Shown: positions 11,788 through 17,169, counted from the first letter of the stretch. The stretch is 64,000 nt of DNA from Escherichia coli O127:H6 str. E2348/69 (GCF_000026545.1 NC_011601.1), one strand, 5' to 3'. The notes: generated by a model not told the origin, from the sequence alone. Translations and numbers: made by a program.

Positions 11788-15334
<3,547 letters not shown>

Positions 15335-15446
15335 ATAGCGCAATATTTCATCGTTGGTGCAAAAATGTAACGCACTGTGCACTGTCATAGTGCGTTTTCA
15401 TTTTCAATCTTCTTAACTTCCTGCTCTCTTTCTCGTTTTTCATTTC

Positions 15447-15462
15447 TGGCACACCGCTTGCA
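15447..15462 (+). promoter_or_regulatory. Sigma-54 (-24/-12) promoter of glnK-amtB
   Basis: TGGCAC-accgc-TTGCA matches the sigma-54 consensus TGGCAC-N5-TTGCA exactly, ~50 bp upstream of glnK; a GCACT...AGTGC dyad further upstream (15386-15398) may be an NtrC site. Confidence 0.75.
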
Positions 15463-15514
15463 ATACCTTCTTCGTGTAGCAGAACCATTACCGAATTCTG
15501 ACCGGAGGGGATCT

Positions 15515-15853
15515 ATGAAGCTGGTGACCGTGATAATCAAACCATTCAAGCTGGAAGACGTTCGTGAAGCGTTATCTTCCATTGGTATTCAGGGCCTGAC
15601 CGTCACCGAAGTGAAAGGTTTCGGGCGTCAGAAAGGGCATGCCGAGCTGTACCGGGGGGCGGAATACAGCGTCAACTTCCTGCCAAAAGTAAAAATTGAT
15701 GTGGCGATTGCTGATGACCAACTCGATGAAGTGATCGATATCGTCAGCAAAGCGGCTTACACCGGAAAAATTGGCGACGGCAAAATCTTCGTCGCTGAAT
15801 TGCAACGCGTCATTCGTATTCGTACCGGCGAAGCCGATGAAGCGGCGCTGTAA
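15515..15853 (+). CDS. glnK: Nitrogen regulatory protein PII-2 GlnK
   Basis: ORF-track frame 15377..15853; start at MKLVTVIIKPFKLEDVREAL gives 112 aa; T-loop with Tyr51 (RGAEYSV) present. Confidence 0.96.
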   Translation: MKLVTVIIKPFKLEDVREALSSIGIQGLTVTEVKGFGRQKGHAELYRGAEYSVNFLPKVKIDVAIADDQLDEVIDIVSKAAYTGKIGDGKIFVAELQRVIRIRTGEADEAAL

Positions 15854-15882: not shown

Positions 15883-17169
15883 ATGAAGATAGCAACGATA
15901 AAAACTGGGCTTACTTCACTGGCGATGCTGCCGGGACTGGTAATGGCTGCACCTGCGGTGGCCGATAAAGCCGACAATGCGTTTATGATGATTTGTACTG
16001 CGCTGGTGCTGTTTATGACTATTCCGGGGATTGCCCTGTTTTACGGTGGGTTGATTCGCGGCAAAAACGTGCTGTCGATGCTGACGCAGGTGACGGTGAC
16101 GTTTGCACTGGTCTGTATTCTCTGGGTGGTTTACGGTTACTCGCTGGCGTTTGGTGAGGGAAACAACTTCTTCGGCAACATTAACTGGTTGATGCTGAAA
16201 AACATCGAACTGACGGCGGTGATGGGCAGCATTTATCAGTATATCCACGTAGCGTTTCAGGGATCGTTTGCCTGCATTACCGTAGGCTTGATAGTTGGAG
16301 CACTGGCGGAACGAATCCGCTTCTCAGCTGTGTTGATTTTCGTGGTGGTATGGCTGACGCTCTCCTACATTCCGATTGCGCATATGGTCTGGGGCGGCGG
16401 TTTGCTGGCTTCTCACGGTGCACTGGATTTCGCGGGTGGCACGGTGGTGCACATTAACGCCGCAATCGCCGGTCTGGTGGGCGCGTATCTGATAGGCAAA
16501 CGCGTGGGCTTCGGCAAAGAGGCGTTTAAACCGCACAACCTGCCGATGGTCTTCACCGGGACTGCCATTCTCTATATCGGTTGGTTTGGCTTTAACGCCG
16601 GGTCAGCGGGCACGGCGAATGAAATCGCAGCACTGGCATTTGTGAATACTGTGGTCGCAACGGCGGCAGCAATTCTTGGCTGGATCTTCGGTGAATGGAC
16701 GCTGCGCGGTAAGCCTTCACTGCTGGGAGCGTGTTCTGGCGCGATTGCCGGTCTGGTCGGCGTGACGCCAGCGTGTGGCTACATTGGTGTTGGCGGCGCG
16801 TTGATTATCGGCGTGGTAGCTGGTCTGGCGGGCTTGTGGGGCGTTACCATGCTCAAACGCTTGCTGCGGGTGGATGATCCCTGCGATGTCTTCGGTGTGC
16901 ACGGTGTTTGTGGCATTGTCGGCTGTATCATGACCGGGATTTTTGCCGCCAGTTCGCTGGGCGGCGTGGGCTTCGCTGAAGGTGTGACGATGGGCCATCA
17001 GTTGCTGGTACAGCTGGAAAGCATCGCCATTACGATCGTCTGGTCCGGTGTGGTGGCGTTTATTGGCTACAAACTGGCGGATCTGACGGTTGGTCTGCGT
17101 GTACCGGAAGAACAGGAGCGAGAAGGGTTGGACGTCAACAGCCACGGCGAAAATGCCTATAACGCGTAA
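15883..17169 (+). CDS. amtB: Ammonium transporter AmtB
   Basis: 428-aa polytopic membrane ORF with signal peptide, matches AmtB; 29 bp downstream of glnK (glnK-amtB operon). Confidence 0.97.
   Translation: MKIATIKTGLTSLAMLPGLVMAAPAVADKADNAFMMICTALVLFMTIPGIALFYGGLIRGKNVLSMLTQVTVTFALVCILWVVYGYSLAFGEGNNFFGNINWLMLKNIELTAVMGSIYQYIHVAFQGSFACITVGLIVGALAERIRFSAVLIFVVVWLTLSYIPIAHMVWGGGLLASHGALDFAGGTVVHINAAIAGLVGAYLIGKRVGFGKEAFKPHNLPMVFTGTAILYIGWFGFNAGSAGTANEIAALAFVNTVVATAAAILGWIFGEWTLRGKPSLLGACSGAIAGLVGVTPACGYIGVGGALIIGVVAGLAGLWGVTMLKRLLRVDDPCDVFGVHGVCGIVGCIMTGIFAASSLGGVGFAEGVTMGHQLLVQLESIAITIVWSGVVAFIGYKLADLTVGLRVPEEQEREGLDVNSHGENAYNA

Follow-up and report, generated by a model that had tools for sequence, protein, structure and literature searches.

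In the stretch of DNA analysed here (64,000 nt, hereafter the window), the intergenic region between mdlB and glnK very probably holds glnKp, the sigma-54-dependent and NtrC-activated promoter of the E. coli glnK-amtB operon. Its core lies at 15447–15462, and two candidate NtrC sites lie directly upstream. Occupancy of this region by sigma-54 and NtrC and its dependence on rpoN and glnG come from published experiments on the same sequence, to which we add the observed matrix scores, conservation, helical phasing and folding potential. glnKp is already known and is an ordinary find; it is a textbook nitrogen-starvation reporter, its recognition adds nothing new, and both the sigma-54 promoter and its enhancer had been identified from the raw sequence in the initial annotation. 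Site A, a terminator-like hairpin and a CT-rich insulator, all described below, were absent from that annotation. The only new lead at this promoter is the possible dual role of its enhancer, which may also serve as the terminator of the upstream mdlAB transcript.

The glnK locus

The gene upstream of the promoter is mdlB, which is co-directional with glnK and ends with the stop codon TGA at 15332–15334 (plus strand); the ORF table, RefSeq (for the identical E2348/69 sequence) and the SmdB equivalog model of NCBIfam all support this assignment. Downstream lies glnK (15515–15853, plus strand), which encodes the PII-family protein GlnK of 112 aa (RefSeq WP_000780338.1) and matches the GlnK equivalog NF007946 of NCBIfam with 236.8 bits (cut-off 181); the score with the GlnB equivalog stayed below the cut-off of that model. 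The second gene of the operon, amtB (15883–17169, plus strand), encodes the ammonium transporter and reached 880 bits with the NCBIfam AmtB equivalog (cut-off 657); the naming of the downstream genes as glnK-amtB in the initial annotation is therefore borne out by both RefSeq and the NCBIfam equivalogs. A glnK Shine-Dalgarno (SD) sequence, GGAGGGG, was found at 15504–15510 (plus strand), 4 nt 5′ of the ATG at 15515.

According to RefSeq, the gene order in the identical stretch is decR, mdlA, mdlB, glnK, amtB, tesB (opposite strand), ybaY and an ISEc13 transposase gene. The last of these, an IS4-family gene at 19058–20431 located directly 3′ of ybaY, represents an insertion specific to the strain when compared with the core glnK-tesB-ybaY neighbourhood. 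The 701 bases around glnKp show 100% identity to E. coli E2348/69 (EPEC O127:H6) and are carried by 5423 of the 5426 complete E. coli genomes. Moreover, the mdlB-glnK intergenic region of K-12 (180 bp) and that of the window differ by one base, at position 15408 in the spacer (T versus A), and data obtained in K-12 can therefore be applied to the window.

The sigma-54 core promoter

The core promoter TGGCACaccgcTTGCA, at 15447–15462 on the plus strand, reads TGGCAC-ACCGC-TTGCA, with the GG of the −24 element TGGCAC at 15448–15449 and the GC of the −12 element TTGCA at 15460–15461, so that the two doublets are placed one helical turn apart. The box lies on the glnK strand and starts 68 nt 5′ of the glnK ATG (15515). 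It is exactly the −24/−12 element that had been annotated, and the sole exact match to TGGCAC-N5-TTGCA in the 64 kb, where 0.07 matches were expected and 6 of 100 shuffled sequences contained at least one. When one mismatch was allowed, the pattern was not enriched in the window (2 matches versus 1.9 expected), and the support for glnKp is therefore drawn from the exact match, its position and context, and the matrix score.

For the sigma-54 matrix, glnK was left out, and the other 17 E. coli promoters listed as known in PMC2831329 served as the training set. By this measure glnKp ranked first of 127,950 positions on both strands; its 19.4 bits exceed the median of 16.9 bits that the known sigma-54 promoters reached in leave-one-out scoring, and the scan proposed with the annotation agreed with its claim. 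No sigma-70-like promoter was found between 14800 and 16000. Across species, the −24/−12 box was kept 59–104 nt before the ATG in all 15 Enterobacterales genome loci, and in many of the more distant glnK loci (Pseudomonas and others) no box came within 2 mismatches of that of E. coli.

The second-best sigma-54 matrix match in the window scored 16.8 bits and corresponds to GTGGCACACATCACGCA at 18190–18215 on the minus strand, in the tesB-ybaY intergenic region. It sits about 120–130 nt upstream of the annotated tesB start, on the tesB strand; the published sigma-54 ChIP-seq study mentions neither tesB nor ybaY.

Sigma-54 promoters normally start transcription 11–13 nt 3′ of the −12 GC, and from this geometry we infer that +1 lies near 15473–15474 on the plus strand, 12–13 nt 3′ of the GC, which predicts a glnK 5′ UTR of about 41 nt. 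No mapped glnK 5′ end was found in the literature searched. Two published figures agree with the predicted start, namely the 42 nt by which PMC4591121 separates the glnK site from the gene start and the −4 numbering of the CT-rich region in bioRxiv 10.1101/086108.

Published occupancy and regulation of glnKp

Comparison with the published glnK promoter, the other check proposed with the annotation, led to the same element: the identical K-12 sequence is a known sigma-54 promoter that spans −68 to −51 relative to the ATG, and deletion of rpoN lowered glnK expression 18.8-fold (PMC2831329). A sigma-54 ChIP-seq peak, OS03, was reported upstream of glnK with the motif CTGGCACACCGCTTGCA (PMC4591121), and the mdlB>glnK spacer was recovered by gSELEX with the RpoN holoenzyme and with NtrC, each used singly, and also with the two together (PMC8743547).

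For NtrC, glnK-amtB was ChIP-seq peak 1 with a 39.7-fold enrichment, and glnK mRNA could not readily be detected once glnG had been deleted (PMC4066584), in line with the nitrogen-limitation control of glnK-amtB that had been proposed from the sequence. The NtrC ChIP-seq interval, 471741–471821 in K-12, corresponds to 15434–15514 of the window, and its centre is the core promoter and not the dyad. This offset is compatible with a low resolution of the peak or with cross-linking through the loop, and the ChIP-seq interval does not pinpoint the sites.

In published work glnKp has served as a reporter dependent exclusively on NtrC~P, and ammonium-starved cells showed a specific NtrC activity at glnKp 400-fold above that of cells rich in ammonium. 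For the Salmonella glnK promoter, 1.1 Miller units in ordinary medium compare with 1778 under nitrogen limitation. The published view is that glnK requires more NtrC~P than glnA.

Two probable NtrC sites of moderate score upstream of the promoter

The dyad pointed out in the initial annotation is present, with its inner arms GCACT at 15379–15383 and AGTGC at 15389–15393, but the NtrC site that contains it, TGCACTGTCATAGTGCG at 15378–15394 (site B), starts at 15378 and not at 15380, two bases having been cut off. Its centre, at 15386 or about −88, lies 63 bp from the −24 GG, which fits the distance of about 60 bp that had been given. The strict consensus TGCACCAnnnTGGTGCA specifies 14 positions, of which site B shares 10; with its 4 mismatches it was therefore missed when the window was searched for this consensus with at most 3 mismatches, a search that returned matches only at the chance rate. 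Site B fits all seven high-information positions of the NtrC motif GCaCcaaaAtgGtGC derived by ChIP-exo (PMC9853098).

To score the region, a symmetric NtrC matrix was seeded from the published consensus and refined from 16 sites in nine other K-12 NtrC/sigma-54 operons (glnA, glnH, nac, astC, rutA, yeaG, argT, hisJ and ddpX), in which the sigma-54 boxes and the best consensus matches had been located. The K-12 gltI region was left out because an IS5 element splits its regulatory region: IS5 separates the sigma-54 box TGGCACATCTATTGCT from the gltI coding region, and the best NtrC-like matches are on the gltI-proximal side of this box, an odd arrangement. The resulting matrix is noisy, with some doubtful training sites.

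With this matrix, site B scored 10.3 bits (rank 9 of 63,984 positions in the window), and a second, weaker-looking and more distal match, site A (TGCAAAAATGTAACGCA, 15358–15374, centre about −108), scored 10.1 bits (rank 10 of 63,984). The two are 20 bp apart, centre to centre, and lie directly upstream of the window's only sigma-54 box. Because eight unrelated positions of the window score higher, the NtrC matrix alone would not single out site B. In leave-one-out scoring, the glnA sites reached about 17 bits against about 10 bits at glnK, and the accepted weaker sites of astC, rutA and hisJ (the second site) obtained 7.7–12 bits, a range that includes site B. The matrix detected no other NtrC-like site near the E. 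coli glnK promoter. Taken with its conservation and helical phasing (below), site B is thus a probable NtrC site, as annotated, and a moderate rather than a strong match.

Overall, the glnK enhancer looks like two moderate NtrC sites two helical turns apart, in keeping with the higher NtrC~P requirement published for glnK, a point that Atkinson and colleagues reportedly also made in 2002. The matrices together with conservation argue for the base-level assignment of NtrC to these two 17-mers. Elsewhere in the window, the matrix gave two overlapping matches (11–12 bits) between ylaC and maa, at 23805–23834; these have no sigma-54 box in their vicinity and probably arose by chance.

Conservation and helical spacing of the enhancer

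Conservation was evaluated in two sets of loci: a GlnK scan with one genome per species gave 79 loci, 15 of them from Enterobacterales, and metagenomes, when searched with the conserved glnK leader as a DNA pattern, contributed a further 59 loci, which yielded 51 distinct upstream sequences. An orthologous site B of the form nGCACnnnnnnTGGTGCG was present in all 67 Enterobacterales upstream regions. Its left half is TGCAC in Enterobacteriaceae and Photorhabdus and C/AGCAC in Yersinia, Acerihabitans and Rahnella, while the right half, TGGTGCG, is nearer to the consensus in most of the 67 regions than it is in E. coli. Site A is kept in Enterobacteriaceae as the pattern GGTGCA...AACGCA at the fixed 20-bp offset.

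In many Enterobacter/Klebsiella-like sequences, a third NtrC-like 17-mer, TGCACCAAAAyrAGGCA (9–16 bits), overlaps the mdlB stop codon about 62 bp upstream of site B. The equivalent position in the window is about 15316–15332, and this third site at the mdlB stop codon is absent in E. coli.

The distance from the centre of site B to the −24 GG took only a few values across the 67 regions, namely 63, 72–73, 83–85, 94–95, 106–107, 116–118 and 183 bp, with Escherichia having the shortest enhancer-promoter loop (63 bp). The mean step was 10.8 bp and the best-fitting period 11.0 bp, a coherence that was matched by 24 of 20,000 random sets of six distances. Spacing in whole helical turns is what a face-of-helix constraint on a short loop between activator and polymerase predicts, and with six classes from 63 to 117 bp glnKp is a very clean natural case of a spacing that evolves only in whole helical turns.

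The looping spacer itself, at 15395–15446 between the enhancer and the promoter (plus strand), is about 85% pyrimidine on the top strand. It contains TTTTCATTT twice, at 15395–15403 and 15437–15445, 42 bp or four helical turns apart, and the two copies may act as phased T-tracts that favour bending of the short loop. A search of 15395–15446 for the IHF consensus WATCAANNNNTTR with at most 1 mismatch returned no site.

A published CT-rich anti-Shine-Dalgarno run just upstream of the predicted start

Just upstream of the predicted +1 lies a CT-rich run, CCTTCTTC (CCUUCUUC), at 15466–15473 on the plus strand, which is the anti-Shine-Dalgarno 'insulator' of Levy et al. (bioRxiv 10.1101/086108). 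In that work glnKp was found to silence downstream translation in read-through transcripts independently of rpoN, and the silencing was traced to CT-rich runs, above all to a heptamer centred at −4, mutations of which relieved it (bioRxiv 10.1101/086108).

The CT-rich run is transcribed only in read-through RNA. In the predicted minimum-free-energy fold of the native read-through RNA, CCUUCUUC pairs with the GGAGGGG region, while in the predicted fold of an RNA starting at 15474 the SD is open and the RNA is less structured than shuffled sequences. The fold energy of the read-through RNA was unexceptional compared with shuffles (z = +0.56), and for this reason the native folds are taken as agreement with Levy et al. 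and not as independent proof.

A terminator-like hairpin over the enhancer

A terminator scan, folding and an inverted repeat all pointed to a terminator-like hairpin with a U-rich tail at 15369–15405 (plus strand), which starts 35 nt after the mdlB stop codon. It has an 11-bp stem with 5 G-C pairs (15369–15379 with 15386–15396) and a 6-nt loop, followed by UUUUCAUUUUC; the stem is formed by the right half of site A paired with the right half of site B. A 76-nt segment folded with −23 kcal/mol (z = −4.1), which none of 200 shuffled sequences equalled, and the hairpin alone with −14.6 kcal/mol.

This raises the reading that the dyad region is at once the NtrC enhancer and the intrinsic terminator of the mdlAB transcript, which would extend the main explanation and not replace it; we regard it as plausible, if slightly short of an even call. 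In its favour, the hairpin with its T-run is the only terminator-like feature that the scan returned between mdlB and glnK, and mdlB is co-directional and upstream in nearly all glnK loci. Of 60 Enterobacteriaceae-like sequences, 58 have the T-run, of which NtrC binding has no need, immediately after site B; it is missing in all seven of the more distant Enterobacterales, where pairing is limited to a short dyad hairpin. The Enterobacteriaceae-like sequences retain the extended hairpin, with a median of −14.8 kcal/mol. At one Enterobacter/Klebsiella-like locus, site B with a T8 is the sole terminator-like feature, and in Photorhabdus, where the site has no T-run, a separate terminator-like hairpin lies just after the NtrC site. 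One stem pair was changed on both sides, being C-G in 29 sequences and U-A in 5.

Against this reading, palindromic half-sites bring pairing potential automatically, and the stem is made of conserved half-sites for protein binding. Covariation, with 92.7% of cells paired, points neither way, as the compensatory pair is confined to Escherichia and Citrobacter and the double change may be a single evolutionary event. The U-tract is broken (UUUUCA...), and the role of the T-run could lie in bending the loop DNA instead. In addition, no mapped mdlB 3′ end was found in the literature searched, and Yersinia has no terminator-like feature anywhere in the region, which suggests that a terminator may not be required here.

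The evolutionary form of this reading, that the glnK enhancer was co-opted in Enterobacteriaceae as the intrinsic terminator of mdlAB through a 10–13-bp RNA hairpin and a conserved T-run, is put forward a little more tentatively. If it is true, a single element of about 40 bp would both stop incoming transcription and recruit the activator of the next promoter, a compact combination of stop signal and enhancer that may be of interest to specialists. glnK would then receive two layers of insulation, the hairpin with its T-run and the CT-rich anti-SD run, within the 180-bp intergenic region, and the question would follow whether mdlAB transcription or the bound NtrC oligomer modulates the other process.

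That the dyad is the mdlB terminator hairpin only, with no NtrC site and with NtrC acting from elsewhere or from solution, would account for the hairpin and T-run, as well as for the modest NtrC matrix score and the 4 mismatches to the consensus. We nevertheless consider it very improbable, since in Photorhabdus the 17-mer still conforms to the NtrC consensus TGCACnnnnnnTGGTGCG, and in Yersinia, Rahnella and Acerihabitans to the close variant C/AGCAC...TGGTGCG, in each case with no T-run and with a weak hairpin. The spacing to the −24 element varies in whole helical turns, which is needless for a terminator, the E. coli promoter has no alternative NtrC-like site nearby, and NtrC binds the mdlB-glnK intergenic region in vivo and in vitro (PMC4066584, PMC8743547). 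A functionless chance similarity of the −24/−12 match, the dyad or both, to which the chance-level frequencies of the one-mismatch sigma-54 pattern and the three-mismatch NtrC consensus might point, has a negligible probability in view of the exact sigma-54 match, the top matrix score, the correct strand and distance relative to glnK, the conservation across a bacterial order, and the published occupancy and rpoN/glnG dependence of the identical sequence (PMC4591121, PMC4066584, PMC2831329).

A working model for glnKp

Under the preferred explanation, an NtrC-activated sigma-54 promoter, sigma-54 RNA polymerase would bind 15447–15462 as a closed complex that is unable to open alone. When nitrogen runs out, NtrB would phosphorylate NtrC, and NtrC~P would assemble on sites B and A, centred at about −88 and −108 and thus separated by two helical turns, from where it would reach the polymerase by looping out the short pyrimidine-rich spacer, with no IHF site involved. 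ATP hydrolysis by NtrC~P would then open the promoter, with transcription starting near 15473–15474. Because both sites are weaker than the enhancer sites of glnAp2, glnKp should fire only at high NtrC~P, that is, under true starvation. Transcription from mdlAB is probably kept out of glnK by the hairpin formed by the NtrC sites and its U-tract, and translation of the read-through RNA that still comes from mdlAB is probably blocked by the CT-rich anti-SD run.

Comparison with known systems

The element is the same as glnKp of E. coli K-12, with the core tttcTGGCACACCGCTTGCAATacct and a position of −68 to −51 from the ATG identical to those published; no substantive difference was found, and the strain background here is EPEC E2348/69-like. 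The archetypal NtrC/sigma-54 system, E. coli glnAp2, resembles glnKp in its activator, sigma factor and looping, and also in having two adjacent upstream 17-bp dyads and no IHF site. The glnAp2 sites TGCACCAACATGGTGCT and AGCACTATATTGGTGCA are near-consensus (about 17 bits) and 32 bp apart, whereas those of glnK score about 10 bits and are 20 bp apart. The glnK enhancer is reportedly weaker than the glnAp2 enhancer, as Atkinson and colleagues are said to have found in 2002. Conversely, the glnK core promoter is nearer to the consensus, with TTGCA at −12 compared with TTCGCT in glnAp2, and its enhancer is closer to the promoter. Moreover, glnAp2 has governor sites and an overlapping sigma-70 promoter, glnAp1, and neither was found at glnK.

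glnKp is also the founding example of the CT-rich anti-SD insulators described by Levy et al. (bioRxiv 10.1101/086108), and the same CT-rich run is present here, but their constructs were synthetic and carried another RBS and reporter, while the window presents the native context. Finally, the whole-turn spacing resembles that of the Vibrio qrr enhancers, in which spacer indels of whole helical turns were described (Brunwasser-Meirom et al., 2016, PMC4740811). The Vibrio case is a correlation signal at LuxO-dependent enhancers, whereas at glnK the spacing falls into six discrete classes relative to one orthologous NtrC site.
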